This document shows positions 1 to 25,049 of a stretch of 64,000 nucleotides of DNA, piece after piece. Source of the stretch: an uncultured delta proteobacterium (lineage in GTDB: Bacteria > Desulfobacterota > Syntrophobacteria > BM002); the NCBI GenBank assembly GCA_963712115.1, contig CAVQGX010000007.1:1-64000 (forward strand). Reading direction: 5' to 3'. The translations under genes and the position numbers were made by a program. The stretch's first letter is position 1. The number at the start of each line of letters is the position of its first letter. The notes below the pieces were generated by a model. The model was given only the letters and a program-made list of their open reading frames with translations. It searched no databases and was not told where the DNA came from.

Positions 1-729
1 AGTAAATTCACGATAATCTCGGCCCAAATAGGCTCGTTTAACATCGTGATCCTCCAAAAGTTCGGCTGCGCTTCCCTGGAGGATAATCCTGCCTGTCTCG
101 AGGACGTATCCTCTGTCGGCGATCTTCAAAGCAGCCCTGGCGTTTTGCTCCACAACAAGAATGGTCAAGCCCTCGTGGCGCAACCTCGATATGGTGTGAA
201 AGATGTCAACGACCAATCTTGGAGCCAAGCCCATTGAGGGCTCATCCAATAAAAGAAGCTTGGGACGCGACATGAGCGCCCGACCGATGGCCAGCATCTG
301 CTGCTCCCCACCGGAAAGAGTGCCGGATATTTGGTTCGACCTTTCTGAAAGAACCGGAAATAGGGAAAAAACCATGTTCAAATCTTGCTTAATGGAACTT
401 CTCTCCCTCCTGCCGAACCGCAGGTAGGCACCCAACTCCAGATTTTCCAGTACCGTTAGAGGTTGGAAAATCTGTCTGCCCTCAGGAATCTGACAGATGC
501 CCAGACGAACTATCGCTTCCGGTGGCTGGCCGTTTATCCTCTGACCCTGAAAGAGGATCTCTCCCTCCCGGGATGGGATTAAACTGGAGATGCAGTTGAG
601 CATTGTACTCTTGCCGGCACCATTTGCGCCGATGAGAGTAACAATCTCACCTGGTTTCACCGAGAGAGAAACATTGTCCAGAACCCGGATCCTGCCGTAG
701 AAGGTCTGTAGATTACGAATTTTAAGCAA
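1..729 (-). CDS. livF: Branched-chain-amino-acid-type ABC transporter ATPase (LivF); 3' end runs off the window
   Basis: Translated by hand (absent from ORF track): TTG start overlapping the livG stop, [22 protein letters not shown]...GANGAGKST (Walker A), ending ...VKRAYLGRDYREFT with no stop in the window. Confidence 0.9.
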   Translation of the reverse strand, partial: MLKIRNLQTFYGRIRVLDNVSLSVKPGEIVTLIGANGAGKSTMLNCISSLIPSREGEILFQGQRINGQPPEAIVRLGICQIPEGRQIFQPLTVLENLELGAYLRFGRRERSSIKQDLNMVFSLFPVLSERSNQISGTLSGGEQQMLAIGRALMSRPKLLLLDEPSMGLAPRLVVDIFHTISRLRHEGLTILVVEQNARAALKIADRGYVLETGRIILQGSAAELLEDHDVKRAYLGRDYREFT

Positions 730-1510
730 CCGGTTCTTCCCCTAAATAGGCGTCAATAACTGCTTGATTCTGCTGGATCTCCCTCGGACTGCCTTCCGCC
801 AGGGTGCGCCCATAGTCCATTACTAGGATCTCGTCGCACACTTCCATGGTTAGGCTCATGTCGTGTTCTACCAAAACTACGGTAATTCCCCGATCCCGAA
901 TCCGGCAGATCAATTGTCCCAGCTCGCGGGTTTCTGCCGCGTTGAGCCCGGAAGCGGGCTCGTCCAGCAATAACAGAAGGGGGTCGGTGGCAAGGGCCCT
1001 ACCGATCTCTAGTATCCTCTGAAGCCCGAAGGGCAAAACAGAACTGGGGCTGCCGGCCCGCTCCCCCAGGCCAATAAAGTTCAGCATCTCCAAACCATCT
1101 TGCCTGATGCACCCCTCCTCCTTCCGGTGGCGTGACAAGCGCAGAGCGGCGCCGATGAATCCGGCACTGGTCCTTGGGTGTCGACCCACCATGATATTTT
1201 CCAGCACGGTCATCCGGTCAAAAAGCTCCACGTTTTGAAATGTCCGGGCAATGCCGAGTTCAGCCACCTGGTGTGGTCCCAGGCCATTTAGCTTGTGACC
1301 ATTGAAGTATATAGCGCCGTCGTCAGTGGGATAAAAACCCGTGATAAGGTTAAACAAGGTGGTTTTGCCGGCACCGTTGGGACCTATAATGCCTTTTATC
1401 TGTCCCTTGCAAACCTCAAAACTGACCTGGCGGACAGCATGAATACCGCCAAAAGACTTGGAAACATTTTCTGCTTTCAGAAGAGGTATTGTCGTCGCCT
1501 CTGCCTTCAC
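722..1510 (-). CDS. livG: ABC transporter ATPase (LivG)
   Basis: [34 protein letters not shown] motifs. Confidence 0.93.
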
Positions 1511-1594
1511 GGCTTTCTCCGATGACAGCCAAACTTCCAGTGAAAAACAGCGAGTAAGACCACAGGTGTAACTCCCTCTTGCCTATCACCTGCC

Positions 1595-2578
1595 CTAAAC
1601 AGATTCCCCAGCGACTCCGCGGCGGAACCGGTATTTTTCCAGGAGATCCAAAGCACCTCGCGTCAGTCCCTGGGGCAAAAAGATCATAACCACCATGAGA
1701 ATGAGTCCAAAGATAACGATGTCGTAGTCGTGAAACACGGCCAGCACTTCCGGAAGTAAAGTAAGAGTAGCAGCGCCAAACACCGCCCCCCAAATGGATG
1801 CCATGCCGCCCACCACAACCATGGTAACCAACTTTATTGAGAACATGAAGTCAAAGGAACCAGGGCTGATGAAGGTGATGAAATGGGCATAGAGACTTCC
1901 TGCCACCGAGGCGTAGACAGCGCTTATGACAAATACCCAGATTTTCAGTCGTGAGGTATAAATACCCGAAGCACGGGCCGCTGATTCACTGTCGTGGATG
2001 GCGCGCAAGGCTCTTCCTACTCTAGAATCTACGATATTGAGGCTCACAGCTAAAGCTGCAAGTGTAGTAAACCACACCAGGTAGTAATAGCTTGCCGGCT
2101 CATCAAGAATTATGGATCCTATGGCAAGTGCAGGGATGCCAACCAAACCTGAAGGACCGCCGGTAAGGTAGTTGAATTCCTTGAAACAAATGTGAACAAT
2201 TATGCCGAAGCCGAGGGTGGCCATGGCAAGGTAGTAGCCGGTAAGCTTTAGGGCGGGAATGCCCACCACCAAGGCTACTACCGCTGTGAGGGCAACAGCC
2301 GCCACCATGGCCGGCCAGGGTGACACATGGTAAGTAGCAGTTAGAATGCCGGAAGTGTAAGCTCCAAGCCCAAAAAAAGCAGCGTGACCGAGACTGATCT
2401 GACCGGCATATCCCATCAATAGGTTTAGCCCTACAACCAACAGAGTGTGGATGCCGATAAAGATCATCACGTTAAGGTAGTAGCGGTTCGTCAGCACCAA
2501 AGGCAGAAGAGCCAGAACCAGCCCGAAGGTACCCACCTGAAACCATTTATATTTAAGTAACCGGATCAATGTTCTCAC
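1595..2578 (-). CDS. livM: ABC transporter permease (LivM)
   Basis: GYAGQISLGHAAFFGLGAY, YLAMATLGFG, TGGPSGL motifs; multi-TM. Confidence 0.93.
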   Translation of the reverse strand: MRTLIRLLKYKWFQVGTFGLVLALLPLVLTNRYYLNVMIFIGIHTLLVVGLNLLMGYAGQISLGHAAFFGLGAYTSGILTATYHVSPWPAMVAAVALTAVVALVVGIPALKLTGYYLAMATLGFGIIVHICFKEFNYLTGGPSGLVGIPALAIGSIILDEPASYYYLVWFTTLAALAVSLNIVDSRVGRALRAIHDSESAARASGIYTSRLKIWVFVISAVYASVAGSLYAHFITFISPGSFDFMFSIKLVTMVVVGGMASIWGAVFGAATLTLLPEVLAVFHDYDIVIFGLILMVVMIFLPQGLTRGALDLLEKYRFRRGVAGESV

Positions 2579-2589
2579 TCCAATATTGC

Positions 2590-2812
2590 AAGGAGCCAGT
2601 AGTCAGAATCCAGGAGTCAGCTGACAGCAGACAGCTCGCAGCATGCAGCAATGATTCTATATAGAGGATACCTGTTTTCTGCCAGTTGACAGCTGCAATC
2701 TACCTGCTGTCTTTTGTCCTCTATCTTCTGCCCGCTGCCAGCTGTAAGCTGCTAGCTGTATTTCCCTATGCTCCTATGCCCTATGCCCTATGCCCTGTGC
2801 CTTGTGCCCTTT
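2590..2812. repeat. Heptamer-periodic palindromic intergenic repeat cluster
   Basis: Purine-rich arm GAGTCAG/GACAGCA-like units, pyrimidine-rich arm CTGCCAG/CTGCTAG units, then (CTATGCC)n at about 2765-2810. Confidence 0.75.
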
Positions 2813-2818
2813 TCATTA

Positions 2819-3703
2819 TCAGAACTTCTTAACTTGCTTCGGCCCCAGCAGACCGCTGGGTCGAAGGAAGAGCACCAGGAGCAGCACGAAAAATGCTATG
2901 GCATCCTTGAATCCAGAGCTGATCAGGCCAGCACCCAGAGCCTCCAATACCCCTAGCAGAAAACCGCCGAGGATGGACCCAGGGCTGCTTCCCAGGCCAC
3001 CCAATACAGCGGCGCAAAAACCTTTAAGACCGAGCATAGTTCCCACGTCATAGCCGCACAAGGTGATGGGAACAATAACGATGCCTGCGGCCGCCCCAAT
3101 AGCGGCGCTCAAAGCGAAGGAGACCGAAACCATACGGTTCACACTTATACCCACTAAACTTGCCGCCCGTCGATTGAAGGCGCAAGCGCGCATAGCCTTC
3201 CCCGTTATTGTGCGTTTATAAAAGAACTGAAGGGACGCCGTCACCACCATGGTCACTCCCAATACCCAAAGGCTTTGCGGAACCAGGGTGGCACCACCAA
3301 GGTGGATTGGATCGGAACCGGTAAAGGGTTTAAGCCCCAGCGCATCTTTCCCCCAGAGCATCATGGCCATGCCGCGAAGAAAAATCGAAGCGCCTACGGT
3401 AATAATGATTAGGGTTATGGGATTAGAACTCCTGGCTGGACGGATGGTAAAGCGTTCCAATACGACCCCCACCAGGGTCACAGACAGAACTGCCAGGATA
3501 AAACTCAAACCGAGGGGCAAAAGACCAATACTGTTCAGGGCGATAACCGCCATGCCGCCCAGCATGACAAATTCACCCTGGGCAAAGTTGATCACCTCAG
3601 TGGAATTATAGATGATGGTAAAACCCAGAGCGATAACCGCGTAAATGGCACCGATGGTAATACCGGAAATTATATACTGGAGAATCTGGACGCTTAGATC
3701 CAT
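2819..3703 (-). CDS. livH: ABC transporter permease (LivH)
   Basis: GAIYAVIALGFTIIY, INFAQGEFVM, LGGLGS, RPSGLLG motifs. Confidence 0.93.
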   Translation of the reverse strand: MDLSVQILQYIISGITIGAIYAVIALGFTIIYNSTEVINFAQGEFVMLGGMAVIALNSIGLLPLGLSFILAVLSVTLVGVVLERFTIRPARSSNPITLIIITVGASIFLRGMAMMLWGKDALGLKPFTGSDPIHLGGATLVPQSLWVLGVTMVVTASLQFFYKRTITGKAMRACAFNRRAASLVGISVNRMVSVSFALSAAIGAAAGIVIVPITLCGYDVGTMLGLKGFCAAVLGGLGSSPGSILGGFLLGVLEALGAGLISSGFKDAIAFFVLLLVLFLRPSGLLGPKQVKKF

Positions 3704-3747
3704 AGTCGAATGCGAAATGTCTAAAATTTAGTAAAACTGGGCTCTTT

Positions 3748-3830
3748 CACCACAAAGAGCACGAAGACCACAAAGAAGCAAACAGTTTTAGATTGCTTGA
3801 ATCTTCGTGATCCTTCGTGCCCTTGGTGTC
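3748..3830. repeat. 9-mer-periodic palindromic element (CCACAAAGA type)
   Basis: CACCACAAAGAGCACGAAGACCACAAAG ... CTTCGTGATCCTTCGTGCCCTTGGTG; related copy at 56344-56422. Confidence 0.8.
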
Positions 3831-3842
3831 TTAAAATAACCC

Positions 3843-5012
3843 CTACTGAATAATCTGCCAGTCGCCTTCCACGATTTTAACCATCACGAAGGCCTCATCT
3901 TTATTAAGGCCGTTATGATCTTGTGGGGAGAATCGAAATATGCCACTTATCCCCACATATCCATCGATTTTCTCGACTTCATCGCGAATTTTGGCCCGGT
4001 CATCCCCCGCTTTTTCGAGGGCTTGAGCAAGGATCTGCAAACCATCCCAGGCATAGCCACCAAAACCGGAAACCGCCACTTGGTATTTTGCCTCGTAGTC
4101 GGCAATGTACTTCTGCAGGACTTGCTTTTGAGGATCGGAATCAGCCAGATCTCCGGCCACGAGAATCTTGCCGGTGGGTAAAATGATGCCATTAGCTGCC
4201 TCACCCGCGAGCTCGATGAATTTTTTGGATGCAACACCATGGCTCTGATAAAGGGGAATCTTGATACCTAGCTGTCGCATGTTCTTGGCAATTACCGCGG
4301 GACCGGGGTTAGTCCCCCAACAAATGATCGCCTGTGGTTTCAAAGCCCTAATCTTAGTGAGCTGAGGGGTCATGTCTGTGTCTTGTGGCCCGAAACTTTC
4401 GTCAGCAACTATCTCATATCCATAGTCTGCTGATTGTTCGAGCAACTGCTGCCTACCGCTATCGCCAAAAGCATTGCTCACCGTCAGGATGGCAATTTTC
4501 TTAACACCCTGGCCCTTGATATAGTTATAGATTTTGGCCACCGCCATCACATCGGTTTGCGGTGTTTTGAAGACCCAGCTTTTCACCGGAGTGGTGATTT
4601 TAACTGAAGCTGCACAAGAAATTAGTGGCACCTGCGCTTTTTCCACTATCGGTATCACCGCCAGGGTTGTGCCACTCCTGGAGGGACCCACAATGGCCAA
4701 GACATTATCTTTCTCGATGAGTTTGTTGGTATTGAGCACTGCTTTGGTAGCATCCCCTTCGGTATCGTAGATCACCAGCTCGATGGGATGCCCGTTGATG
4801 CCTCCGCCAGCGTTTATCTGCTCAGCAAGAAGTTCCATGGAGTTGCGCTCCGGCTCGCCCAAAAACGATGCTGGCCCGGTGATCGCAAAAATACCGCCGA
4901 TCTTGTAAGGAGCCTTGGGTTCTTCTTTTTTGGCGCAACTGCTACATATCAGAAATATTGCCAGCAGCATCACTGCCAAAATCAGCAACCTTTTCCTCTT
5001 ACCCTGTTTCAT
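3843..5012 (-). CDS. ABC transporter substrate-binding lipoprotein (LivK/LivJ-like, PBP type 1)
   Basis: Signal peptide with Cys, YKIGGIFAITGPASFLG, GGINGHPIELVIYD; ATG 5012 has a GGAGG RBS. Confidence 0.9.
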   Translation of the reverse strand: MKQGKRKRLLILAVMLLAIFLICSSCAKKEEPKAPYKIGGIFAITGPASFLGEPERNSMELLAEQINAGGGINGHPIELVIYDTEGDATKAVLNTNKLIEKDNVLAIVGPSRSGTTLAVIPIVEKAQVPLISCAASVKITTPVKSWVFKTPQTDVMAVAKIYNYIKGQGVKKIAILTVSNAFGDSGRQQLLEQSADYGYEIVADESFGPQDTDMTPQLTKIRALKPQAIICWGTNPGPAVIAKNMRQLGIKIPLYQSHGVASKKFIELAGEAANGIILPTGKILVAGDLADSDPQKQVLQKYIADYEAKYQVAVSGFGGYAWDGLQILAQALEKAGDDRAKIRDEVEKIDGYVGISGIFRFSPQDHNGLNKDEAFVMVKIVEGDWQIIQ

Positions 5013-5079
5013 TCTCCACCCTCCTTTTTCCCTCACCACTGATTATCGAACTTAGAACTAACCATCAGACTGGAGTTTG

Positions 5080-5243
5080 AACCACAGAGAGTTAGAATTT
5101 CAGATTATTGATTGTAGATTGCACCCGCCCGCCTCGCCTTGCTCGCATGGCGGGCGGGGATTTCAGAACCTTCTCGTGCCTACTTAAGCCACTCTACAAT
5201 CTAAAATCTCCAATCTCAAATATCCTTTGTGCCCTATGTGGTT
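5080..5243. repeat. Composite palindromic element (AACCACAGAG...CTATGTGGTT) carrying a 35-bp GC hairpin insert
   Basis: Closely matches 48172-48293 and 27756-27910; extra hairpin at 5124-5158. Confidence 0.85.
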
Positions 5244-5266
5244 GTGCAACCCTGATGAAATCTCAT

Positions 5267-5698
5267 TTACATAGCATAGAGTTTCTCGCCCTTGATAACC
5301 GTAACTCCATTCCGCCTCAAAACCTCCACCGCACTGTCAGCGTTGTCAAAGCGGAAAATAAGCACCGCGTTTTGACCGCTTTGTTGGACAAATGCATACA
5401 TGTATTCAACATTAATCCCACCGTCGAAAAGAATTTGCAGAATGTTGTTCAGACCCCCGGGCCGGTCCTCCACCTCCACGGCTACGACCTCGGTTCTACC
5501 CACGGTGAAGCCATGTTCTTTGAGCACTTTCTTGGCTTTCTCGTGGTCGTTAACAATGAGCCGCAAGATGCCGAAATCAGAGGTGTCAGCCAAAGATAAA
5601 GCGCGGATGTTGATTTCGGCCTTCCCCAGAATTCCGGTAACCTCAGCAAGTCTTCCAGCCTTGTTCTCCAAGAATATGGAGATTTGCTCAACCTTCAT
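5267..5698 (-). CDS. Double ACT-domain amino-acid-binding protein
   Basis: [13 protein letters not shown]...DRPGGL...INVEYMYAF; this family is typically adjacent to paaK. Confidence 0.92.
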
Positions 5699-5884
5699 GG
5701 TATCCCTCCTCTGGCACGGGCTTGCAATCTTTTGTTTTGTCAGTTTTGCCGTTTATGCCGGTTTTGCCTGATGAAATCTGTTCAACAGTTATTTCTTATT
5801 TACCACAGATAATCGGAGCTCCATCTCTGCGTATTGATTATTACCTGGCCAATTAGCTAAACCGACGAAACTGGCTAAACAGAA

Positions 5885-7186
5885 TTATATTTTTCTCTTG
5901 TCTATTACCCGGACAGCCTTGCCTTCAGTCCTTTGAATTGATTTAGGCTCTACCAGCCTGACCTTGGCAGCAACCCCCAGCAGTTCCTTGATATTCTTTT
6001 CTAAACTTCGTTCCATCGCCTGAAGGTTCTTGACTTCGTCAGAAAAAATCCTTTCATTTACCTCCACCATAACAGTGAGGGTGTCCAATCTTCCCTCCCT
6101 GTCTACTACCAACTGGTAGTGGGGCTCGATGCCATCAAACTCCATGATGACGCTCTCGATTTGGGAGGGGAAAACATTGATGCCGCGGATGATCAGCATG
6201 TCATCACTTCGGCCACGTACTCGCCCCATGCGCACCATGGTTCGACCACAACGGCAAGGCTCAGGATAAAGAATTGAAATGTCGCGAGTTCTGTAGCGAA
6301 TGACGGGGAAAGCCTCTTTGGTGATGGTGGTGAACACAAGCTCTCCCGGGGTGTTGTACGGCAAGACTTCTTCACTGTCTGGGTCGATAATTTCAGGAAT
6401 AAAATGGTCCTCAAAAATGTGCAAGCCATTTTGGGCTTCAATGCACTCTACGGAAACACCCGGTCCAATGATCTCACTGAGACCATAAATATCCATTGCT
6501 TTGAGGTTTAGCTTTTTCTCGATTTCATCTCTCATCTTCTCGGACCAGGGTTCAGCCCCAAAAATGCCGGCCTTGAAGTGGAGTTCGCGGAAATCAACAC
6601 CCATCTCCTCCGCCACTTCTGCAATCAACAGGGCGTAGGAGGGAGTGCAGGTCAAAATGGTGGGAGCAAAATCCTTCATTATCATCACTTGCCGCTTGGT
6701 ATTCCCGCCGGAGATGGGAATAACCGAAGCCCCCAGCTTTTCCGCTCCATAATGAAAACCAAGACCTCCAGTAAAGAGACCGTAACCATAGGCATTATGA
6801 ATCATGTCTCCTTTGGTGGCTCCCCCTGCCATGAGAGTTCGTGCCATGAGTTCAGACCAGGTCTGGATATCTCGAGCTGTGTAGCCCACAACGGTGGGCT
6901 TTCCGGTTGTGCCGGAAGAGGCATGGATTCGAACCACATTGTCCATGGGCACGGTAAACATGCCAAAGGGGTAGTTGTCACGCAGATTGTCTTTGTAGGT
7001 GAAAGGGAGTTTACGCAAATCATCGAGTGTGCGTATGTTATCTGGTTTGACCCCTGCCTCGTCGAAACGCTTCTTGTAAAATGGCACTGTGTTGTAAACT
7101 CTTGCAGCTACCGACTGCAGCCGCCTCAGTTGAATGGCCTCCAGAGCCTCCCTGGGCATGGTTTCAAACTCTTCGTTGTAGATCAT
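5885..7186 (-). CDS. paaK: Phenylacetate-CoA ligase
   Basis: [11 protein letters not shown]-loop, [36 protein letters not shown]. Confidence 0.93.
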
Positions 7187-7207
7187 TAGCCCTCCTTATC
7201 AACACCA

Positions 7208-7380
7208 ATATTGACGGCTTGGTAAAAAGTCCATCTGTCCGCCTCAGGCGGATTGCGCTTCATCTTTAGTCACTGCAGCGTACTTTTATGTACGCCTCAT
7301 TCCTAAAGCTTCGCGCGCCTTGCATCTGGCTCTTTTTACTGTGCCGTCTCATAAATGACTTTTTACGAATTCATCAATAT
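7208..7380. mobile_element. MITE-like long hairpin element with about 24-bp imperfect terminal inverted repeats
   Basis: Left end ATATTGACGGCTTGGTAAAAAGTC; right end GACTTTTTACGAATTCATCAATAT; apical GCGTAC-TTTTAT-GTACGCCTC; mini hairpin TCCGCCTCAGGCGGA at 7238-7252. Confidence 0.7.
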
Positions 7381-7434
7381 AGGCTTACCTGCTCCAATTT
7401 TTATCTGACCATCAAAGCCCGAGACTAAACCCCT

Positions 7435-8424
7435 TCAGAAGGAGAACCTCACAGACAAACTCAAAGCTGGTGCCCGAGGCTGATTTAAACTCTCCTGTTC
7501 GTAGGGGACAAGCCGCTGTTGTTGTCTCCTTTCTTCTCGATCATTGTATTTGTGAGCTACGTTTACCGCGCTATAAATGTTTCCACCGTAAAAGGCCGCA
7601 GTGACCACCGCCAATCCAACTCCCACTCCCTGGTGGTCCTGATTAAAGGCCTCGTAAGTGGCAAAAGCAAAAGCACCGGTGAACACTAACGCTATGGTTC
7701 CGTCTCGAGGTCGCTGGCAATAAAAGTGTCCTGCCCCAGGTAAAATCGCTGCTAGGAAGCCTGCCAGAGCAGGATCTTTTCGTTTTGCTTGTGATTCTTC
7801 TGCCACGATCTTCTGCACTTCCATGGCTGCCCCGTATAGGGTGTCGCCGCTCCCCACCTGTCGCAGAGCTTCGTCGGCTTCCAACCACCGGCCGTCTTTG
7901 GCATAACTAAGGCCAATGAGATACCAGGCCTCTGACTCCAATAGTCTACCTGGACGATCTGCAATAATGGACCGATACTCCTCTCTGGCCTTTTCGCCTC
8001 TTCCCATCTCACTGAAGGAGCGAGCTTTAAGGAAACGGGTCTCCCATTTCAATGAACTCATGGGATACCCACGTAGAAAAGAGTCTGCCGCCTCCACTGC
8101 TTGTTGCCAGCGTTTGCCTCGAAAGTAGCACTGGACAATCCGAAGGGCAGCATTCGCTGCTTGGAAATCATCGGGGTAGAGAAAGAGAAAGCGCTCATAC
8201 TCGCCAATAGCACGGAAATATTCTTGCTGGGAAAAAAGGTAATTGGCAAATTCCAGTACCTGCTGGGCAGAGAGGTCAACGGCAGATTTTGTCCCCTGGG
8301 CCTCAGCAGAAGTTCCCAAGGCCAAAATAAGAGTGAATATAATGGCTACTAAGAACGAGCGGGGGAAGATAGCAACAGATGTCGCAGGCTGTGTAAGCGC
8401 TTTATCCATGACTTGTCGTGGCAT
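7435..8424 (-). CDS. Exported TPR protein with C-terminal TM2-like membrane domain
   Basis: Signal peptide, TPR-like helices (YFRAIGEYERFL), KDPALAGFLAAILPGAGHFY motif. Confidence 0.8.
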   Translation of the reverse strand: MPRQVMDKALTQPATSVAIFPRSFLVAIIFTLILALGTSAEAQGTKSAVDLSAQQVLEFANYLFSQQEYFRAIGEYERFLFLYPDDFQAANAALRIVQCYFRGKRWQQAVEAADSFLRGYPMSSLKWETRFLKARSFSEMGRGEKAREEYRSIIADRPGRLLESEAWYLIGLSYAKDGRWLEADEALRQVGSGDTLYGAAMEVQKIVAEESQAKRKDPALAGFLAAILPGAGHFYCQRPRDGTIALVFTGAFAFATYEAFNQDHQGVGVGLAVVTAAFYGGNIYSAVNVAHKYNDREERRQQQRLVPYEQESLNQPRAPALSLSVRFSF

Positions 8425-8455
8425 CTCGAGATTACGAAACCTGGCCGTTTAACTT

Positions 8456-8489
8456 AAAAAGCCGTGGAATCCGCCTAACCCACGGCTTT
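8456..8489 (-). terminator. Second (distal) attenuator terminator of the Phe leader
   Basis: Minus strand AAAGCCGTGG-loop-CCACGGCTTTTT. Confidence 0.8.
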
Positions 8490-8494
8490 GAAAT

Positions 8495-8533
8495 AAAAAG
8501 CCATGGGCTCACTTCCCTGTCCGCCCATGGCTT
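8495..8533 (-). terminator. First attenuator terminator of the Phe leader
   Basis: Minus strand AAGCCATGGGC-loop-GCCCATGGCTTTTTATTT. Confidence 0.8.
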
Positions 8534-8555
8534 AGATGCTCACCTCTATACCGGC

Positions 8556-8636
8556 TTACCTCTTCAACCAAAGGGCAGACTTCTTAAAAAAGAAGCCGCC
8601 GGAGGGAAAGTTAATCTGAAAGCCGGCAAACTGCAT
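8556..8636 (-). CDS. Phe-rich attenuator leader peptide MQFAGFQINFPSGGFFFKKSALWLKR
   Basis: 26 codons, 6 Phe including FFF; GAGGA RBS; followed by two terminators. Confidence 0.8.
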   Translation of the reverse strand: MQFAGFQINFPSGGFFFKKSALWLKR

Positions 8637-8662
8637 AGATTCCTCAGTTCCTATGGAGCGTC

Positions 8663-8691
8663 AAATTATATAAGTATTGAATACTTGTCAA
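8663..8691 (-). promoter_or_regulatory. sigma70-type promoter for the Phe leader
   Basis: TTGACA (8691-8686), then TATAAT at 15 nt or TAATTT at 17 nt. Confidence 0.6.
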
Positions 8692-8710
8692 GTTATTTCT
8701 TGATCTTGTA

Positions 8711-9427
8711 TTAACCTCCTTCTGCAGGTTTTTCCGCCTGCCGCCACCGCCTGAGCTTTATTCTAATCCACTCGCCAAAGAGAGGAGCCGGACTTTCATT
8801 GAGATAGTTGTCGTAGTGAACCATTGCCTTAGTTTTGTCGCCCATGGCCTCGTACACCCTGCCGAGGTAAAGCTGCACCTGAGCTTGGTATACCGGAGCT
8901 CCCTCCTTAGCAAGGAGCTGGTAAATCTTTAAGGCATCCTCATACGACCCCTTGGCCTCATAAGTCTCACCCAGACTGACTAAGACCCGATCGTGGAGGG
9001 GATGGGTGCGATCGGTTCGCTGAAGAAAATCATTGTAACAGAGAATAGTCTTATCGTATGTTCCTTGCTCGAAATAGATGTTTCCGAGATCTACAAGTGC
9101 AGTGGTGGCCACAGTGGTTGAGCCATAACGCTTCTGTACCTCCTCCAGGGCAGCTGTGGCTTGACCATATTCTGTCAGGTTATTCCCACCTGTCGATCCG
9201 GTAGGATACAGGGCTAGGGCTTTCTGGTAAAGATCGGAGGCTTTTGCTTCACGGCTGGCCTTAAAGACAAAAACTGCTCCCACGATTACAAGGAAAAGAG
9301 CTACTCCTGCCGCTACTCCCGTCATAATCTTTATGTTTTCGCTACACCAGTTTATGACTTTAGCACTAAAAGTTATGAATTCGTCTGGTTTCTTGATTTC
9401 TTTTCTCTTTATTTTTCTTTTTGCCAA
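8711..9427 (-). CDS. Membrane-anchored TPR protein (YfgM-like)
   Basis: RKEIKKPDEFITF N-terminus, one TM segment, TPR repeats. Confidence 0.8.
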   Translation of the reverse strand: MAKRKIKRKEIKKPDEFITFSAKVINWCSENIKIMTGVAAGVALFLVIVGAVFVFKASREAKASDLYQKALALYPTGSTGGNNLTEYGQATAALEEVQKRYGSTTVATTALVDLGNIYFEQGTYDKTILCYNDFLQRTDRTHPLHDRVLVSLGETYEAKGSYEDALKIYQLLAKEGAPVYQAQVQLYLGRVYEAMGDKTKAMVHYDNYLNESPAPLFGEWIRIKLRRWRQAEKPAEGG

Positions 9428-9467: not shown

Positions 9468-9605
9468 GATTTCAGATTTTAGATCTCACTTTAACCTTAT
9501 TAGTTTCTCCATCTTCAGAAAAATCTGCAATCTCCAATCTCAAATCTGCAATGACCCTCCCTCCATTACTCCAGCTTTTTCCTGTCCGCTGTCCGCTGCC
9601 TGCTG
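9468..9605. repeat. Heptamer/octamer periodic palindromic repeats
   Basis: GATTTCA-GATTTTA arm versus AATCTGC-AATCTCC-AATCTCA arm; also CTCCATTACTCCA and CTGTCCG units. Confidence 0.65.
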
Positions 9606-10268
9606 CTAGCTGCTCATCCTTTTTGCCTCTCTCAGGATTGCACCACCCACTAAATTGACCAGAGCCCAGATAACATCCAGGGGGAAATGTTCCTCAATGG
9701 AGGAGTCAAAAGTAACCACCAACCGTGCAGGAAACTCTTCATCCTCAAGCCAGAAAATATAGCCAAGGGGAATCTTGGGTAGAGGCCAGAGGCGAAAGGA
9801 TACATCTCCAAAATCAGTCTGGCCACCTCCAAGTCGCAGGCCTATTTCCTTAAATGTTTGAGCATCTCGACCGAATTTTTCTTCCAACGGCCGGGTGAAG
9901 AGAACGTGAGGACCCCTGAAAAAAAAGTCACCACCCTTGATTTCGCCACCGGTCACCATCCGGCCTGTGAGCCCAATCGGCCGGCTGTGAATCAGGTAGG
10001 TCAACAACACCAGATAAAATTGAAAAGAGAGCTTTTGTGGACCGTCATGATCGAGACACTCAATCAACCTTTTATCAGGGTAACACCCGAAGGACTGATG
10101 CAAGAAAGGAATCTGGTAGCAGCCGCGCCCCTGATCATATCTCACAGCGGCACGACCGCACACTTCACTCACATCCATGGACGAAAGCTCGCTCCAGAGA
10201 TTGGGATCGATTTCGCCAGGATCCTCATAAATACCCCGCCCTTTTTTACTCAAATCGCTTTCGCTCAT
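9606..10268 (-). CDS. DUF3786-like protein
   Basis: GGDFFFRGPH, LPKIPL, DEEFPAR, LDVIWAL motifs. Confidence 0.75.
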   Translation of the reverse strand: MSESDLSKKGRGIYEDPGEIDPNLWSELSSMDVSEVCGRAAVRYDQGRGCYQIPFLHQSFGCYPDKRLIECLDHDGPQKLSFQFYLVLLTYLIHSRPIGLTGRMVTGGEIKGGDFFFRGPHVLFTRPLEEKFGRDAQTFKEIGLRLGGGQTDFGDVSFRLWPLPKIPLGYIFWLEDEEFPARLVVTFDSSIEEHFPLDVIWALVNLVGGAILREAKRMSS

Positions 10269-13335: not shown

Positions 13336-13923
13336 TTAATAACCGCGGGTTTGCTGCAAAGCCTCGATAAACTCTTCACCAACCGCTTCGAATACGTCCG
13401 CGTCCGCCAGTAACTCGAAGTAGTGGAAATAGGTACTACCTTCGTGGGAATAGATTCGAGCCTCTCCATAGCCCTTGACCTGGAGATCTCCTGCTTGAGC
13501 CGCCATGGCGCTTTTGGCTGCAGGAGTCCCGCCTAAGAGATCGTACTCAAAGTACTGATATTCTCCCGAACCCTTTGCTGCTCTTTGCCGTTTCCTGAGA
13601 ATCTTCTCAAGTCTTTCATAGGCTTTGAGAAGCCTACCTGAATAGTCGGTGGATGAACGCTCTGTCCAGATGAGAATCACTGCCGGTCGTACCATGGCCG
13701 CAAGGATCACATCTGGCTTTGACCCCATCTTAAAAGCGTCGAAAGATTCTGGCATCTTCTTTACCACCTGCCAGGTTCCCAAAGGGAGCTTGAAGAGCAG
13801 ACGACCTTCTGGGTAACGAAAATAGCCATCTTCAAACGCTTGAGCGTGGCTGGCAAGGGTGGCCAAGAAAAGAAAAAACAGCAATAAGGTAATGGATCGT
13901 AGACGCATGAAAGCCTCCTTCAT
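13336..13923 (-). CDS. Hypothetical exported protein
   Basis: 195 aa with a signal peptide (AxA site); directly follows the EEP gene. Confidence 0.65.
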   Translation of the reverse strand: MKEAFMRLRSITLLLFFLFLATLASHAQAFEDGYFRYPEGRLLFKLPLGTWQVVKKMPESFDAFKMGSKPDVILAAMVRPAVILIWTERSSTDYSGRLLKAYERLEKILRKRQRAAKGSGEYQYFEYDLLGGTPAAKSAMAAQAGDLQVKGYGEARIYSHEGSTYFHYFELLADADVFEAVGEEFIEALQQTRGY

Positions 13924-14836: not shown

Positions 14837-15211
14837 CTAGTTGTGAGTAAGCTGCCCTGCACAGCACGGGCAAGCAGGGGCATGGGAAAATTCTACTTCG
14901 CAGAGTTGATATTCCTCCATCCAATCTGCAAGGATTTCACGCTGCTCTTCATCCAAAACATGGACTGCCTCTTTTATATCCCCAAAGGAGTTGTCCTTCC
15001 CGGTCCATATTCGGGCCAGGAGGGTGAGCAGTAGTCGATCTTGGACACTCAGTTTAAGATTGTCGATATCCTGGAGAATCATCAGGAGGTCGAATTCCTT
15101 TGTGCCACAGTTCCAGTATTTCTGCCATTTAAAAGGTAGACAGCGCTGCATCAGTTCCATAAACCTTAACTTCCGATTCCTGCTATTCTCCGAATGCATT
15201 AAGATCCCCAC
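14837..15211 (-). CDS. Hypothetical protein with C-terminal HxxxCPCC
   Basis: 124-aa ORF; no family recognised. Confidence 0.5.
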   Translation of the reverse strand: MGILMHSENSRNRKLRFMELMQRCLPFKWQKYWNCGTKEFDLLMILQDIDNLKLSVQDRLLLTLLARIWTGKDNSFGDIKEAVHVLDEEQREILADWMEEYQLCEVEFSHAPACPCCAGQLTHN

Positions 15212-15356: not shown

Positions 15357-15893
15357 CTATTCCGGCAAATTCTTGCCGAACTTCTCTATAGCCTCAGGGA
15401 TCTGTTTGCGTATAAAAGTCTCTTTTTCGAGCTCAGAAAGTCTCTCAAATATCTGATATTTTGGATGCGATTCGCTAAGCGGCGGAACCAGAGTTGTTCC
15501 TTGTTCCTTTAACTGCTGATATTGCTCGATTAGTTCAACAATCGGCACCTGACGCCTAGCGCTACTTTCCAACCAGTTGAGTCTTCTCATACATTCGAAG
15601 CGAAGCTGATCCAGCAAGTAGATCGAGATGTCGATGACTTCCATCTTCTCAGCTTTATCTAGTTGGAAAAAATCAGAGGTGGTGCCCAGGTCCTTTACCC
15701 CCATGACCAGCTCATACAAGGCAAAAATGTTCTGGTCGCCTGGAGAGATGAGAAAGAGTAAGATCTTGTTCGACAAGTCGGACAGGCTGGTTTGCTCGTC
15801 CAATTTCTCTTTGAAGCGTCTCGACCAGGACCTAAACCCCCTTATTGCAGCCTGTTTGCGCTTAAAGGAATCCAGTTGGATAACTTCTGCCAT
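15357..15893 (-). CDS. Hypothetical protein
   Basis: 178 aa, GGAG RBS, protein-like composition (LLDQLRFECMRRLNW). Confidence 0.7.
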   Translation of the reverse strand: MAEVIQLDSFKRKQAAIRGFRSWSRRFKEKLDEQTSLSDLSNKILLFLISPGDQNIFALYELVMGVKDLGTTSDFFQLDKAEKMEVIDISIYLLDQLRFECMRRLNWLESSARRQVPIVELIEQYQQLKEQGTTLVPPLSESHPKYQIFERLSELEKETFIRKQIPEAIEKFGKNLPE

Positions 15894-16145: not shown

Positions 16146-16934
16146 TCAAGATGAGCAGAAGTGGTCTCGGGCCTCATCAAAGAGGCGCATGAACTCCTCA
16201 ACGTCTTTTTTGGCAATTACTCTCTTGAGCTCAAAGATTATCCTCTCAAATTCTCGAAAAAATACTCCGTAAGTTGAATTGAGCATTGGCATGGCTGCAT
16301 AGAGATCTGCATCCTGGTCAAGGAGATGACTAATCTCCATGAGTCTCCTATGGAATGCGGGGGTGGCAAATCTTTTTAGGCTTTTAAGATCCATGCCCAA
16401 CGAATCGATGGTGAGTCCTAGAACCAGAGTACTGAAATGAGTAAGACCTTGTACTACTGCCATATAAAAGTCATGGACTTCTGGTGCAACCACCTCTACC
16501 TGGGCGCCACTTTCCAACAAAAGGTTGTTGAGCCAATCTTGCCACTTACGCCCTCGACCGGGACAAAGCACCACGGTCTGCCCGGTGATGTTAGGCTCAC
16601 CTGGTCCAAATAGCGGGTGGGTCCCTATCACAGAGGAAGAGGAGACCTCGAGCATTGTTCTGAGCACCTCGCTCTTGATTGAGGCAATATCCATGAGCAA
16701 AGCATCATCCCTGACCAGATGGCCGATATTTCGTACCACTTCCACCGTGTGCTGCAAGGGAACCGCCACAAGCAACACATCACACCTTGGCGCCAAGTCT
16801 TCTGCCATTATTTCAGTATCAAGATCAGCCACTGATACCCTATACCCTAGCTCCTCGAAATATCGATGAAACCAGCGGCCCATCTTACCATGGCCGCCAA
16901 CTATGCCAATCTCTATGTCCTTGTCGTTTTTCAT
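16146..16934 (-). CDS. tyrA: Prephenate/arogenate dehydrogenase
   Basis: GIVGGHGKMG Rossmann motif, DIASIK, GTHPLFGP, HDFYMAVVQGLTHF. Confidence 0.9.
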   Translation of the reverse strand: MKNDKDIEIGIVGGHGKMGRWFHRYFEELGYRVSVADLDTEIMAEDLAPRCDVLLVAVPLQHTVEVVRNIGHLVRDDALLMDIASIKSEVLRTMLEVSSSSVIGTHPLFGPGEPNITGQTVVLCPGRGRKWQDWLNNLLLESGAQVEVVAPEVHDFYMAVVQGLTHFSTLVLGLTIDSLGMDLKSLKRFATPAFHRRLMEISHLLDQDADLYAAMPMLNSTYGVFFREFERIIFELKRVIAKKDVEEFMRLFDEARDHFCSS

Positions 16935-16943
16935 TGATCAGTT

Positions 16944-17067
16944 CTCATTGGGCATTTCACATTTTGCATCTGGCATTTATCAATCTCACATGAGAAGCAT
17001 AATCAGACTCCATTTCATCCAAATGGGAAATGATAGATGAGAAATGGAGAATGCGAAATTTGAAATG
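16944..17067. repeat. CATTTNN / NNAAATG heptamer palindromic element
   Basis: CATTTCA-CATTTTG-CATCTGG-CATTTAT arm versus GAAATGA/GAAATGG arm; related copy at 31729-31855. Confidence 0.75.
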
Positions 17068-17084
17068 TGCGGGCAGTCTGTTGT

Positions 17085-18341
17085 CTATCCGTACAGATGC
17101 TCAAAAGTCTCCCAGAATTGGGGAAAAGACTTGTTTACACACATCTCATCAACTATACGGACTCCCTTCGCCACCAGCCCAGCAACGGCGAAACTCATGG
17201 CAATTCGGTGATCATTATGGGAATCAATCAAGGCTCCTTGGGGATTTCCACCTCTGATAGTGAGGCAGTCTTCCTTCTCCTCCACCTGGACATTCATTTT
17301 CTCAAGTCCTTCTGCAATCGCTCGGAGTCGATCGCTTTCTTTTATCCGCAGGTGGCCAACGTTAGTGATAACCGTTTTACCTTGGGCAAAGGCAGCCGTG
17401 ACAGCGAGAGTTGGCACCATGTCGGGCATATCCTTCATATCCACCTCAATAGATCGAAGTTCTCCACCATACAGTGTCACACCGTAGTCATGCCACTCAG
17501 CCCGACATCCCATCTGGCATAGAATGTCCAGAAAGGCCAAATCCCCTTGACGGCTCTTATGGAGGATGTTTTTAGTTGACACTTTTCCCCCGGTGATGGC
17601 GGCGGCTGCCCAAAAGTATGAGGCCGATGAGCAGTCTCCCTCCACATCATAACTGCCTGCCAGGTAGCGTCCCGGCGCCTCCACCCGGAGATTTTCCTCA
17701 TCCAGCCAACGCGCCTTTGCGCCAAACACGGACATCCCCTCCAAGGTCACATCTACGTACGGCTTGGAAACCAGTCCCTGGACGGCAACCTCAACGGGCT
17801 GTGAAGCATAGGGTGCCGCTAAAAGAATGGCAGAAACGAACTGACTTGATCGGCTCGCATTCACTTTGGTGCTGCCACCTTTGAGACCACTGCCGTGGAT
17901 GCGTACAGGAGGATAGCCCCTTTCTTGCAGGCTTTCAACCACTCCCCCTAGTGGCTGCAAGGCGACCAGCAGTTCTTCAATGGGACGAGTGTGCATTCGC
18001 TCATTTCCGACAAGTACAGACGATCCCCGGCCCAAACAGGCCACTGCAGTTAGTAACCTCATGGAGGTGCCTGCGTTTTCCAGATAGATGGGTTCTGACG
18101 GACAATTGAGGACGCCGCCCGTGCCAATTACTTCTATTGCCTCGGGTGAATGTCTGATCTGTGCCCCGAACCTTTCGAGCGCCGTTGCGGTGTAGCGGGT
18201 GTCATCGCACCAAAGTCCGTTGCGCAGCCAACTCCTCCCCTCGGCAAGGGCAGCCATAATTAGGTAGCGGTGGGTAACGCTTTTGGAACCTGGGATATTT
18301 ACAGATTTATCGAGATTATCAATGGTCTTTATCTGCTTCAT
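17085..18341 (-). CDS. aroA: EPSP synthase
   Basis: PGSKSVTHR, NAGTSMR, SSQFVSA, LRIKESDR, DHRIAM, KSFPQF; likely start ATG 18341. Confidence 0.95.
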   Translation of the reverse strand: MKQIKTIDNLDKSVNIPGSKSVTHRYLIMAALAEGRSWLRNGLWCDDTRYTATALERFGAQIRHSPEAIEVIGTGGVLNCPSEPIYLENAGTSMRLLTAVACLGRGSSVLVGNERMHTRPIEELLVALQPLGGVVESLQERGYPPVRIHGSGLKGGSTKVNASRSSQFVSAILLAAPYASQPVEVAVQGLVSKPYVDVTLEGMSVFGAKARWLDEENLRVEAPGRYLAGSYDVEGDCSSASYFWAAAAITGGKVSTKNILHKSRQGDLAFLDILCQMGCRAEWHDYGVTLYGGELRSIEVDMKDMPDMVPTLAVTAAFAQGKTVITNVGHLRIKESDRLRAIAEGLEKMNVQVEEKEDCLTIRGGNPQGALIDSHNDHRIAMSFAVAGLVAKGVRIVDEMCVNKSFPQFWETFEHLYG

Positions 18342-18389
18342 TGCAAGTCTTGACACCCTGTTGCACGTGGTTGACTCCAAGGGTGTGAA

Positions 18390-19211
18390 CTATAGGGTTT
18401 CGTCTCCAGCTGCCTCCTCGAGCGCCCTACGCATAACTTCAACAGGCGCCGCTCTGCCAGTCCAGATTTCAAACTGGGCAACACCTTGATAAAGAAGCAT
18501 GTCGAGTCCGGAAAGGCAGCCGCATCCAGCCCTCTCAGCATCTTGGAGAAGTCTTGTTTTAAGCGGGCGATATACCATGTCCAAAACCACCATTCCGTCT
18601 CGCAGCCAATGAGCTGGAACCAGACTCTGATCCATTGTGGCCGACATACCCACGGTGGTGGCATTCACGACAAAATCCGTTCTGAACTGATCCCAGGCTT
18701 GCCCTGGCACAAAAGTGCAGTTCATTTCAGCTGCAAGCTTCTGTCCACGTGCTTCATTTCGGTTCATGATAAAAACTTGTGTGTCCTTGCTTTGCAAGCC
18801 ATAGATAGCAGATCGAGCCGCACCACCGGCCCCCAGAATCAGGCCACGCTTACCCCCAAGCTCGGTCATCTGCTCCAATGCCTGAACAACTCCCAGCCAG
18901 TCTGTATTGCTTCCATACAACCTGCCCTCTCGGGACAGAATTGTGTTCACTGCACCAATAGCGCGGCCTATCTCATCCACCTCGTCCAGATGGGGTATAA
19001 TTTTTTCTTTGTGAGGAACCGTAATGCTGGCTCCTCGAAAACCCAATTTTCTTATGGCGGAGGCGGCTTCCCCTGCCTCATCCACCCGAAAAGCCAGATA
19101 GGCCAGGTTCAAACCCAGGTAAGAGAAGGCAGCGTTGTGCATCTGGGGGCTCAGGCTGTGGGCAACCGGATTGCCGAAAATAGCCACATATTCGGTCTGG
19201 GCGTCGATCAT
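18390..19211 (-). CDS. aroE: Shikimate dehydrogenase
   Basis: HSLSPQMHN, TVPHK, GAVNT, NTD, GAGGAARS. Confidence 0.95.
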   Translation of the reverse strand: MIDAQTEYVAIFGNPVAHSLSPQMHNAAFSYLGLNLAYLAFRVDEAGEAASAIRKLGFRGASITVPHKEKIIPHLDEVDEIGRAIGAVNTILSREGRLYGSNTDWLGVVQALEQMTELGGKRGLILGAGGAARSAIYGLQSKDTQVFIMNRNEARGQKLAAEMNCTFVPGQAWDQFRTDFVVNATTVGMSATMDQSLVPAHWLRDGMVVLDMVYRPLKTRLLQDAERAGCGCLSGLDMLLYQGVAQFEIWTGRAAPVEVMRRALEEAAGDETL

Positions 19212-22147: not shown

Positions 22148-22182
22148 ATAAAAAAGCCGCGGCTCGGGACTGCCGCGGCTTT
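22148..22182 (-). terminator. Attenuator terminator of the aro leader
   Basis: Minus strand AAAGCCGCGGC-AGTCCCGA-GCCGCGGCTTTTTTATT. Confidence 0.85.
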
Positions 22183-22207
22183 CGGAACATACTCAGCAAC
22201 TATCGGG

Positions 22208-22288
22208 TCAGCATGCGCGCACAGCTCCCTCTATCGCCACCATGGCGTAATAATAATAGCAAAAAAATGGGGAGGGCCGTCGCTTCAT
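22208..22288 (-). CDS. Phe/Tyr-rich leader peptide MKRRPSPFFCYYYYAMVAIEGAVRAC
   Basis: 26 codons; AAGGGA RBS; FF and YYYY run; terminator follows; upstream of aroA'. Confidence 0.82.
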   Translation of the reverse strand: MKRRPSPFFCYYYYAMVAIEGAVRAC

Positions 22289-25045: not shown

Positions 25046-25049
25046 TCCT

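Follow-up and report, generated by a model that had tools for sequence, protein, structure and literature searches.

Why would a bacterium keep a phenylacetate-CoA ligase and a transporter of the branched-chain amino acid type behind a leader peptide rich in phenylalanine codons? The question is raised by a stretch of 64,000 nucleotides (the window) from an uncultured delta proteobacterium (contig CAVQGX010000007.1 of assembly GCA_963712115.1). One end of it holds a Phe leader with an RNA attenuator, a gene for a tetratricopeptide repeat (TPR) protein, and a run of genes for the ligase PaaK, an ACT-pair protein and a Liv-type ATP-binding cassette (ABC) importer, the whole set on the minus strand. 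Current annotation puts such genes under the headings 'phenylacetate degradation' and 'branched-chain amino acid transport'. We think it probable that they instead form an operon that is induced by Phe starvation and salvages aromatic carboxylic acids.

Gene assignments in the 64-kb window come from Pfam and NCBIfam profile matches to 65 of its 96 open reading frames (ORFs) of at least 110 aa, 31 ORFs overlapping longer ones having been dropped. These matches confirm the paaK-ACT-livKHMGF unit that an earlier note on this DNA had described (minus strand, 1–7186). The same note had placed the unit behind a Phe leader. The leader is real, but it lies outside 1–7186, at 8556–8636, and the TPR gene stands between it and paaK.

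A phenylalanine leader and a two-terminator attenuator

The leader ORF, MQFAGFQINFPSGGFFFKKSALWLKR (8556–8636), has 26 codons, six of them for Phe (F3, F6, F10 and F15–17), and is preceded by a Shine–Dalgarno sequence, GAGGA, at 8645–8641. Its regulatory codons are Phe only, with no admixture of Tyr. Further upstream we read from the sequence a promoter-like site (8665–8691) composed of TTGACA (8691–8686), a 15-nt spacer and TATAAT (8670–8665). This spacer falls outside the 16–18 nt range of our promoter scan, which did not report the site; a TTGACA box likewise lies upstream of the leaders in related loci compared side by side.

The full attenuator RNA spans 8450–8583 and consists of five segments. 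S0, TCTGCCCTTTGG (8568–8579), lies 6 nt past the FFF-KK codons and is the antiterminator partner of S1. Terminator T1 (8490–8533; −21.5 kcal/mol) comprises S1, AAGCCATGGGC, a loop, S2, GCCCATGGCTT, and a U-run, and terminator T2 (8456–8489) comprises S3, AAAGCCGTGGG, a loop, S4, CCACGGC, and a further U-run; S2:S3 is an alternative pairing. The S0:S1 duplex is predicted at −22.4 kcal/mol. The locus has the marks of a leader-peptide attenuator, namely an ORF with clustered codons, a terminator before the first gene, and an exclusive antiterminator backed by covariation. At gathering scores Rfam assigned zero families to the whole window, leaving the attenuator unmatched, and at E values up to 5 the region 7000–8800 gave merely two chance matches to long non-coding RNAs.

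Comparison with relatives supports both folds. A search of genome contigs with PaaK as the query matched 423 stretches, of which 290 encode a relative, and we analyzed the best 80 loci (L001 and so on below). The set excludes the source genome; its closest members are two uncultured 'Deltaproteobacteria' metagenome-assembled genomes (MAGs) at 94% and 93% identity, followed by MAGs of Desulfobacterales, Desulfatibacillum, Desulfatitalea, Syntrophobacter and Smithella, and then by Firmicutes, Acidobacteriota and others. The five-segment consensus reads [TC]CTGCC[CT]NTGG for S0, CCATGGG for S1, CCCATGG plus a U-run for S2, C[CT]G[TC]GGG for S3 and CC[AG]C[GA]G plus a U-run for S4. S0 is found 6 nt after the final Phe run, within the leader ORF or just past it; S1:S2 forms T1 and S3:S4 forms T2, with S0:S1 and S2:S3 as the alternative pairings. 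The S0:S1 duplex (−18 to −28.5 kcal/mol) and T1 (−15 to −23 kcal/mol) are equally stable in 10 of 11 copies, the exception being L020, in which S0 was mis-placed. In an alignment of 11 sequences (A2), with slid pairings as controls, 97.9% of 187 cells were paired in the terminator state and 5 of 17 pairs had changed on both sides (slid controls, 29–49%); the corresponding values for the antiterminator state were 92.9% of 240 cells and 4 of 22 pairs (slid controls, 34–46%).

We built R1, a covariance model for the terminator state, and searched it over the window and the 80 loci (1.31 Mb). Thirteen strong matches emerged (86.6–131.8 bits), one in the window, at 131.8 bits, and the others in 12 of the 80 loci (L001, L002, L008, L017, L020, L022, L024, L030, L037, L052, L056 and L070); L022 and L037 scored as positive though they were outside the training set. 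Apart from one further match at the trp operon (below), the other 10 matches reached at most 19.4 bits, with E of at least 0.03, and are mostly reverse-strand echoes of the same hairpins. Leaders with at least 5 Phe and at least 17% Phe precede the R1 element in 11 of 13 cases, against 57 of 5470 background short ORFs (ATG ORFs of 15–35 codons in the window and the 80 loci). The two near misses are L017, with 4 Phe and 4 Tyr, and L070, with 5 Phe in 30 codons. Among the Phe-rich leaders are MASSQNFFFGFFGGFYFFMGCP (L020), MMKFGFFHFSGFSFRGGFFFAGPACGAAK (L030) and that of L052, in which twelve Phe codons stand in a row. In all three of these loci the Phe codons are a long way ahead of S0, and S0 is located past the stop codon in L002 and L052.

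The element keeps company with particular genes. Phe-rich upstream leaders were seen exactly in loci with the importer or the TPR gene, and an importer follows paaK-ACT in 10 of the 12 R1-positive loci; of the exceptions, the contig of L056 ends within paaK and L002 is genuinely without an importer. By comparison, R1 matched none of the 38 loci that have paaK-ACT only and at least 1 kb on both sides. Three importer loci have no R1 match: L013, with 594 nt upstream only; L060, with no upstream sequence; and L050, which begins with iorAB and has no leader. The attenuator lies 150–310 nt before paaK, among tightly packed genes, in L017, L020, L022, L024, L030, L037 and L052. In a quick tree of PaaK (84 rows) the attenuator-bearing rows branch basally in three subclades, all within one clade of 40 rows, a pattern from which we draw no firm conclusion.

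In some of these operons a second, divergent PaaK follows livF as the last gene (L017, L020, L022, L024, L037 and L060), with 37–40% identity in L017 and L037. These last two loci have leaders that mix Tyr and Phe codons (..YYCNCYYFRGGFFF.. at L017 2115–2198; ..FYTCSCFYFRGGFYF.. at L037 9759–9842), and their operons may provide for two amino acids from two aryl acids.

The trp operon uses the same RNA design

A script that seeks amino-acid runs in short ORFs found three aromatic leaders in the window: before trpE, before the aro operon and before the TPR gene. The trp operon (trpEGDCFBA, 23056–30120) lies upstream of the paaK unit and is preceded, on the minus strand at 30142–30336, by the leader MKKNLNRQKNLVNWYWWWYVCVGVYPLPGE (..NWYWWWY..; ORF 30244–30336) and a two-terminator attenuator. 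R1 matches this attenuator at 30142–30270 (56 bits, E 2e-11), which was absent from the training set. The trp and Phe elements are the same RNA design and differ only in their leader codons, Trp in one and Phe in the other. Because this design serves the trp operon of the same genome, which is unambiguously biosynthetic, we take the Phe element to be a starvation-induced attenuator; by analogy with trp, read-through should rise when the cognate charged tRNA is scarce.

How might the Phe element work? A sigma-70-type promoter would drive the 26-codon leader with its six Phe codons. When Phe-tRNA is scarce, the ribosome would stall at the upstream Phe codons, which lie far from S0 in L052, L020 and L030, and S0 would therefore stay free. 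It would then capture S1, S2 would capture S3, no terminator would form, and the TPR gene, paaK, the ACT gene and the importer genes would be transcribed. With ample Phe the ribosome would instead reach S0 and the stop codon, covering S0, and T1 and T2 would terminate transcription. The E. coli attenuators of pheL-pheA, pheST and trpL likewise have a short ORF with a codon run, exclusive hairpins and a terminator before the first gene. They differ in having four segments, whereas the present element has five, with two tandem terminators disabled by S0:S1 and S2:S3. The regulatory codons here precede S0 instead of forming part of it, and untranslated RNA should read through. The target also differs from that of pheA control, being a putative salvage and uptake operon.

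The first gene after the attenuator in the window lineage encodes a TPR/YfiO(BamD)-like protein of 329 aa (7435–8424), and orthologues are present in L001, L002 and L056. It is separated from paaK by 248 nt, a region (7187–7434) with a folding z of −3.96 in which we sought a Phe leader immediately before paaK and found none. Most of this gap is a structured insertion of about 170 nt (7203–7372), missing in L001 and L002, where the TPR gene stops about 80 nt upstream of paaK; the insertion is present as a single copy in the window and has zero copies in the 80 loci. It is not a remnant of a YidD gene. The intergenic gaps of the window unit measure 84–254 nt and contain only weak hairpins (−9 and −12.9 kcal/mol) with no strong terminator, and the unit is likely co-transcribed from the attenuator onward.

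In related loci the TPR gene has a YidD-like (PF01809) companion between attenuator and paaK, fused to it in L008 (670–1878) and L070 (5715–6968), and either fused to it or following it as a separate ORF in L056 (6860–7321) and L013 (94–558). In L002 (5263–6612; 93% identity) the order leader-TPR-paaK-ACT is kept, and 670 nt further on there is a gene for an outer-membrane channel of the FadL/TodX family, whose members are channels for hydrophobic or aromatic compounds.

Relatives tie paaK-ACT to phenylalanine supply

Decades-old labelling work established that anaerobes make Phe from phenylacetate by reductive carboxylation. In rumen bacteria this aryl-acid route is said to go back to Allison in 1965. 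According to PMC4162585, which cites Porat et al. 2004, aryl acids feed a second pathway to aromatic amino acids in Methanococcus maripaludis via the indolepyruvate:ferredoxin oxidoreductase (IOR) MMP0713/0714. The chemistry that we propose is the same, namely activation, carboxylation by IOR and transamination. Our evidence differs in that it comes from genetics and regulation and not from biochemistry; here a single unit behind a Phe attenuator comprises the ligase, the ACT protein and an ABC importer, and IOR lies outside the window.

Do the relatives bear out such a pathway? ACT follows PaaK in 67 of the 80 loci, and a binding protein with liv genes is present in 13. The ligase gene is adjoined by iorAB in 6 loci (L034, L050, L051, L055, L067 and L080) and by a class I/II aminotransferase gene in 5, all of them Firmicute (L041, L042, L043, L046 and L047), as expected of an IOR-dependent pathway. 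The gene order of L050 is iorAB-SBP-livHMGF-paaK2-paaK-ACT, SBP being the substrate-binding protein. In L080 a promoter is followed by the leader MPAMSQRVAETPAYYFFIYFRGYHLCP, with Tyr and Phe codons, an S0-like segment, a terminator and then iorA-iorB-paaK-ACT; its iorA product passes TIGR03336 (743 bits; cut-off, 650.9). We sought leaders upstream of iorA in L034, L050, L051 and L055 and found none there. Just past the paaK-aminotransferase pair, three of the Firmicute loci have thiamine pyrophosphate riboswitches (L041 2613–2726, L046 9098–9212 and L047 12442–12556), which presumably control the next gene.

Rfam scans of 18 non-Desulfobacterota loci revealed a second regulatory device. In L058 a T-box (RF00230; 94.6 bits against a gathering score of 93) immediately precedes paaK-ACT, and L045 has an orthologous T-box leader before its own pair. 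Both loci are from Firmicute MAGs and have no transporter behind ACT. In both T-boxes a specifier loop, GAA(A)-UUC-A, lies ahead of the closing helix, and UUC specifies Phe by the usual rule. Phe T-boxes of Firmicutes sense uncharged tRNA-Phe and turn on genes for Phe supply, as we propose for the Phe leader, although by a different mechanism, a tRNA-binding RNA. As read from these sequences, three devices from two phyla appear to couple paaK-ACT to a lack of Phe, or of both Phe and Tyr, and one of them couples IOR along with it.

The ligase and its ACT-pair partner

The paaK product (433 aa; 5885–7186) is a PaaK-family aryl-acetate-CoA ligase. It matches the equivalog model TIGR02155 at 640.0 bits (cut-off, 646.3), with residues 8–431 on positions 1–422 of 422, and carries the two domains expected of PaaK, PF00501 (AMP-binding) and PF14535 (AMP-binding_C_2). 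Its solved relatives are 2y27 (E 1.9e-151), which is PaaK1 of Burkholderia cenocepacia, 2y4o (1.5e-147) and 4r1l (1.4e-123). From the 640-bit match and the similarity to PaaK1, phenylacetate would be the default substrate. PaaK1 and PaaK2 of B. cenocepacia (2y27 and 2y4o) share the two-domain adenylate-forming fold at high similarity. The setting differs from that of the aerobic paa catabolon in its lack of paaABCDE/FGHIJ in the window scan, in the pairing with ACT in 67 of 80 loci and in its putative control by Phe shortage. Among the 65 scanned ORFs we found no domains of paaABCDE, paaFGHIJ, padBCD/EFGHI or benzoyl-CoA reductase.

The adjacent gene (5267–5698) encodes a 143-aa protein of the ACT_8 pair family (PF19571) that is 40–96% identical across 30 relatives; its closest solved relative, 2f06 (E 1.7e-31), is uncharacterised. 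We predicted the PaaK–ACT complex from a 31-row alignment of each protein and obtained an ipSAE of 0.43 (runs of 0.47, 0.43 and 0.41), with 0.00 for the best of three controls; the runs share at least 97% of contacts, and partner pLDDT (predicted local distance difference test) is at least 86. Of 157 solved complexes 116 attain the ipSAE mark, as do 2 of 215 mismatched pairs; at an ipSAE of 0.60 or less it is attained by just 18 of the 157 and by both mismatches. These counts apply only roughly, since we supplied our own alignments. The prediction points weakly to PaaK–ACT contact, and the ACT-pair protein probably senses an amino acid and modulates PaaK. Of 651 candidates, 22 are longer proteins that contain the ACT pair, with a ligase domain in four or five, a binding-protein domain in two and an aminotransferase domain in one. 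These fusions, single sequences on single contigs, may be read-through in gene calling that mirrors gene order.

The importer groups with aromatic-acid binders

The architecture of a HAAT/Liv system is complete: a Peripla_BP_6 substrate-binding protein (3843–5039; the ATG at 5012 from which the earlier note counted is in the same frame), two BPD_transp_2 permeases, LivH-like (2819–3703) and LivM-like (1595–2578), and two ABC ATPases with a BCA_ABC_TP_C tail, LivG-like (722–1510) and LivF-like (1–729), the last few codons of the latter (its 3′ end) lying beyond the window edge. E. coli LivJ/LivK-LivHMGF (LIV-I/LS) has the same five components and the same permease and ATPase families. The binding protein itself falls in the aromatic-acid-binder branch of the HAAT family. 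Its best sequence matches in the PDB are 3sg0/4dqd, 3tx6/4f8j, 4jb0, 3ukj, 3uk0 and 7ylt (E 2e-45 to 4e-40, with 3sg0/4dqd, 3tx6, 4jb0 and 3ukj at 2e-45 to 6e-42), compared with only 5e-13 to 2e-11, and 20–21% identity, for LivJ and LivK. An AlphaFold2 model from 12 orthologues (pLDDT 90.6) gave the same picture. The top 13 fold matches are aromatic-acid binders of Rhodopseudomonas palustris and relatives, with TM scores of 0.80–0.82 by query length; the second-ranked is 4dqd, 'a transporter in complex with 3-phenylpyruvic acid' (TM 0.82/0.90), and the other top matches include a p-coumarate complex, one with a ligand reading 'caff', and CouP. Sequence, with its top 7 hits, and fold thus both place the binding protein nearest to those of CouPSTU and the related R. 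palustris HAAT importers (4jb0, 4f8j and 3sg0/4dqd).

Residues at the binding site separate the protein from LivJ and LivK. In 12 of 12 family members aligned with these E. coli proteins, LivJ Glu226 is replaced by His and Thr102 by a one-residue deletion, and the window protein has no equivalent of either; LivJ Ser79 and Tyr150 are conserved in kind. According to PMC3610893, CouP holds ferulate via Thr102, Ser222 and Arg197 and the ring hydroxyl via Gln305 and His309, and binds 4-hydroxyphenylpyruvate too. The window protein, 26–28% identical to CouP and the related R. palustris proteins, shares with them a YQ(S/T)HG motif and has Ser and Thr at CouP Thr102 and Ser222, conservative changes that keep hydroxyl residues, whereas Arg197, Gln305 and His309 are Pro, Gly and Tyr. 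Regulation differs as well, being biosynthetic here and that of a lignin-monomer catabolic regulon there. Alignment and model together suggest that the ligand is an aromatic carboxylate lacking a ring hydroxyl. Both phenylacetate and phenylpyruvate would fit, and we regard phenylpyruvate as just as likely a cargo as phenylacetate. The earlier note had the Liv system import phenylacetate or Phe. Its grouping with aromatic-acid binders agrees with the first, but Phe import is weakened by the missing equivalent of LivJ Glu226.

Weighing a salvage route

How would these parts fit together? The importer would take up phenylacetate and/or phenylpyruvate, PaaK would convert phenylacetate to phenylacetyl-CoA, an IOR encoded elsewhere would carboxylate this reductively to phenylpyruvate, and an aminotransferase would yield Phe; the ACT-pair protein would sense the amino acid and modulate PaaK. 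Aryl-acid salvage toward Phe was the central idea of the earlier note, and it is strengthened by an attenuator of the trp design, by Phe T-boxes, by iorAB linkage in 6 of the 80 loci and by a binding protein of the aromatic-acid type.

Several points weigh against the salvage reading. The immediate downstream gene of the attenuator is that of the TPR protein, which has no known link to the pathway, and internal promoters are possible because the gaps between the window genes are long (84–254 nt). Ribosome-free RNA would fold into the read-through state, unlike in the classical trp model. PaaK scores 6 bits under the NCBIfam equivalog cut-off. The 65 ORFs scanned, from 64 kb only, contain no iorAB or aminotransferase gene and no POR/TPP (IOR) domain, as the earlier note had said of iorAB; the carboxylation step is putative in the source organism, and iorAB is not in the neighbourhood of 74 of the 80 relatives. 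The T-box of L045 scores 92.3 bits, 0.7 bits under the gathering score, and the specifier rule that we applied, under which a conserved purine comes after the codon at the loop's 3′ end, is presumably the usual one. In L058 paaK (10001–10190) is frameshifted near residue 63, by either an assembly error or a pseudogene, the paaK of L045 being intact. As to the importer, the ligand is not readable by analogy with CouP because the carboxylate-capping Arg197 is Pro here, and the ligand contacts of LivJ, by Glu226 and by the Ala100–Thr102 loop to the alpha-ammonium group, are what we take them to be, with the numbering checked on the sequence. Finally, the annotation of E. coli livJ/K-HMGF reads 'branched chain amino acid/phenylalanine ABC transporter'.

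This annotation also speaks for the alternative that survives best, a high-affinity importer that Phe starvation induces and that takes up Phe or aromatic amino acids, with paaK-ACT as passengers that have another task. HAAT-family systems do import amino acids, the best NCBIfam names of all five components are Liv proteins, and uptake of the missing amino acid on starvation is the simplest logic. The binding protein fits it poorly, with 20–21% identity to LivJ/LivK, His at Glu226, a deletion at Thr102 and closest relatives, in sequence and in fold, that bind aromatic acids. Nor does an importer account for paaK-ACT without a transporter under a Phe T-box (L045 and L058), for paaK-ACT with iorAB behind a Tyr/Phe leader (L080), or for L002, which retains leader-TPR-paaK-ACT without liv genes. 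On balance we consider it unlikely.

The aro operon and the chorismate route

If salvage supplies Phe, is it the only route? The aro operon of the window (16146–22018) encodes 2-amino-3,7-dideoxy-D-threo-hept-6-ulosonate (ADH) synthase, 3-dehydroquinate (DHQ) synthase II, a stand-alone chorismate mutase of 110 aa, aroD, aroE, aroA and tyrA. As the earlier note had observed, it combines the stand-alone mutase and tyrA with no prephenate dehydratase; the PF00800 domain is absent from the aro operon and from all 65 scanned ORFs. The operon also lacks shikimate kinase (aroK) and chorismate synthase (aroC), and the missing dehydratase says little about the genome because these two are missing there too. 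Upstream, on the minus strand (22150–22288), are the leader MKRRPSPFFCYYYYAMV... (22208–22288; ..PFFCYYYY..) and a single terminator, AGCCGCGGC..GCCGCGGCT with a U-run (22180–22150), with no R1 match. With two Phe codons before four Tyr codons (FF-C-YYYY), this leader would have the operon sense both Tyr and Phe, and its Phe codons suggest that chorismate still feeds Phe.

These data bear on the strong form of the earlier note's hypothesis, in which the genome would have no prephenate or arogenate dehydratase at all and aryl-acid salvage would be its sole route to Phe. The lack of PF00800 from the scanned ORFs and the stand-alone mutase beside tyrA are in its favor, and so is the control of paaK rather than pheA by the Phe-specific member of the window's three aromatic leaders. 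The window, however, covers 64 kb where the genome runs to several Mb, with aroK and aroC also outside the aro operon; the two Phe codons before four Tyr codons in the aro leader are expected if Phe draws on chorismate too; and an organism that relied on aryl acid from outside would be a conditional auxotroph. We consider a sole route improbable. Most likely the salvage route supplements the chorismate-derived one and does not replace it.

Two further observations concern the aro operon. At its start (20193–22018), an archaeal-type ADH synthase (NF005556, 411 bits) and DHQ synthase II (NF002627, 481 bits) replace 3-deoxy-D-arabino-heptulosonate 7-phosphate (DAHP) synthase and AroB. Just past tyrA on the minus strand lie three ORFs of 195 aa (13336–13923), 124 aa (14837–15211) and 178 aa (15357–15893), with no credible Pfam or NCBIfam match (a chance-level E of 0.11 for the 178-aa ORF); among these and five others, Pfam at E up to 1 found nothing dehydratase- or kinase-like. 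They may be candidates for the missing steps of the aromatic pathway, or unrelated.

Cargo and direction of the pathway

A third alternative keeps the salvage logic and changes the cargo: phenylpyruvate, phenyllactate or phenylpropionate would be imported, and PaaK would act on another aryl or acyl acid. The closest solved homologue of the binding protein was crystallised with 3-phenylpyruvate, CouP is described in PMC3610893 as binding 4-hydroxyphenylpyruvate as well, and PaaK lies just under its equivalog cut-off. Many relatives also have a second divergent PaaK in the operon, and two leaders mix Tyr and Phe. Set against this, the 640-bit match to the PaaK model and the E of 1.9e-151 to PaaK1 make phenylacetate the default, and the window leader is Phe-only. 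As a whole we judge this alternative quite improbable, more so than the two above.

Least probable is a catabolic or detoxifying unit that turns phenylacetate into phenylacetyl-CoA and on to benzoyl-CoA, or runs the ligase in reverse to conserve energy in Phe fermentation: PaaK is best known from phenylacetate catabolism, its nearest solved relatives are the catabolic PaaK1/2 of B. cenocepacia and IOR runs oxidatively in peptide fermenters, yet the control logic is biosynthetic (the RNA design of the trp operon here, T-boxes in Firmicutes), the 65 scanned ORFs hold no paaABCDE, pad or benzoyl-CoA reductase genes, and an aminotransferase gene is the neighbor in five Firmicute loci.

Novelty and wider meaning

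Each ingredient is of a known kind: the chemistry, leader-peptide attenuators, T-boxes, PaaK and aromatic-acid HAAT importers. As far as our searches show, three things are new: a Phe regulon made up of the ligase-ACT pair, whether or not importer and IOR accompany it; an attenuator design of five segments and two terminators that is common to trp and Phe leaders and absent from Rfam; and the re-reading of genes routinely annotated as catabolic or branched-chain. Our literature searches, judged on titles and the openings of abstracts, listed no report of a Phe attenuator or T-box that controls paaK-ACT, and the text of PMC2494555, which mentions T-box targets, gave no hits for paaK, CoA ligase, F390, ACT domain or indolepyruvate.

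Three independent starvation sensors, the Phe leader, the Phe T-box and the Tyr/Phe leader on iorAB-paaK-ACT, would re-label a widespread gene pair as anabolic. Predictions of auxotrophy and metabolic models would change for sulfate reducers, syntrophs and Firmicutes of the gut or rumen; fermenters that excrete phenylacetate could be supplying their neighbors with an amino-acid precursor; and an uncharacterised ACT-pair family would gain a testable role. One can go further and see in PaaK-ACT, with or without HAAT importer and iorAB, the long-missing bacterial gene set from phenylacetate to Phe, a multi-phylum Phe regulon under lineage-specific sensors of tRNA charging (the new two-terminator attenuator or a T-box), with ACT as a Phe-sensing ligase subunit and with the module as the only Phe route in this organism, whose genome would have no prephenate dehydratase. 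Taken with all its parts, this is a long shot.

Other features of the window

ARAGORN found zero tRNA genes in the window. The gap between the ACT gene and the binding-protein gene holds a GC-rich hairpin, CCCGCCCGCC..GGCGGGCGGG. Short tandem arrays with a period of 7, 8, 14 or 16 (for example CCCTATG x6.6) occur throughout the intergenic DNA, including the gaps of the paaK-liv unit; examples lie at 2764–2810, 5193–5225, 9522–9552, 26635–26668 and 58802–58877.

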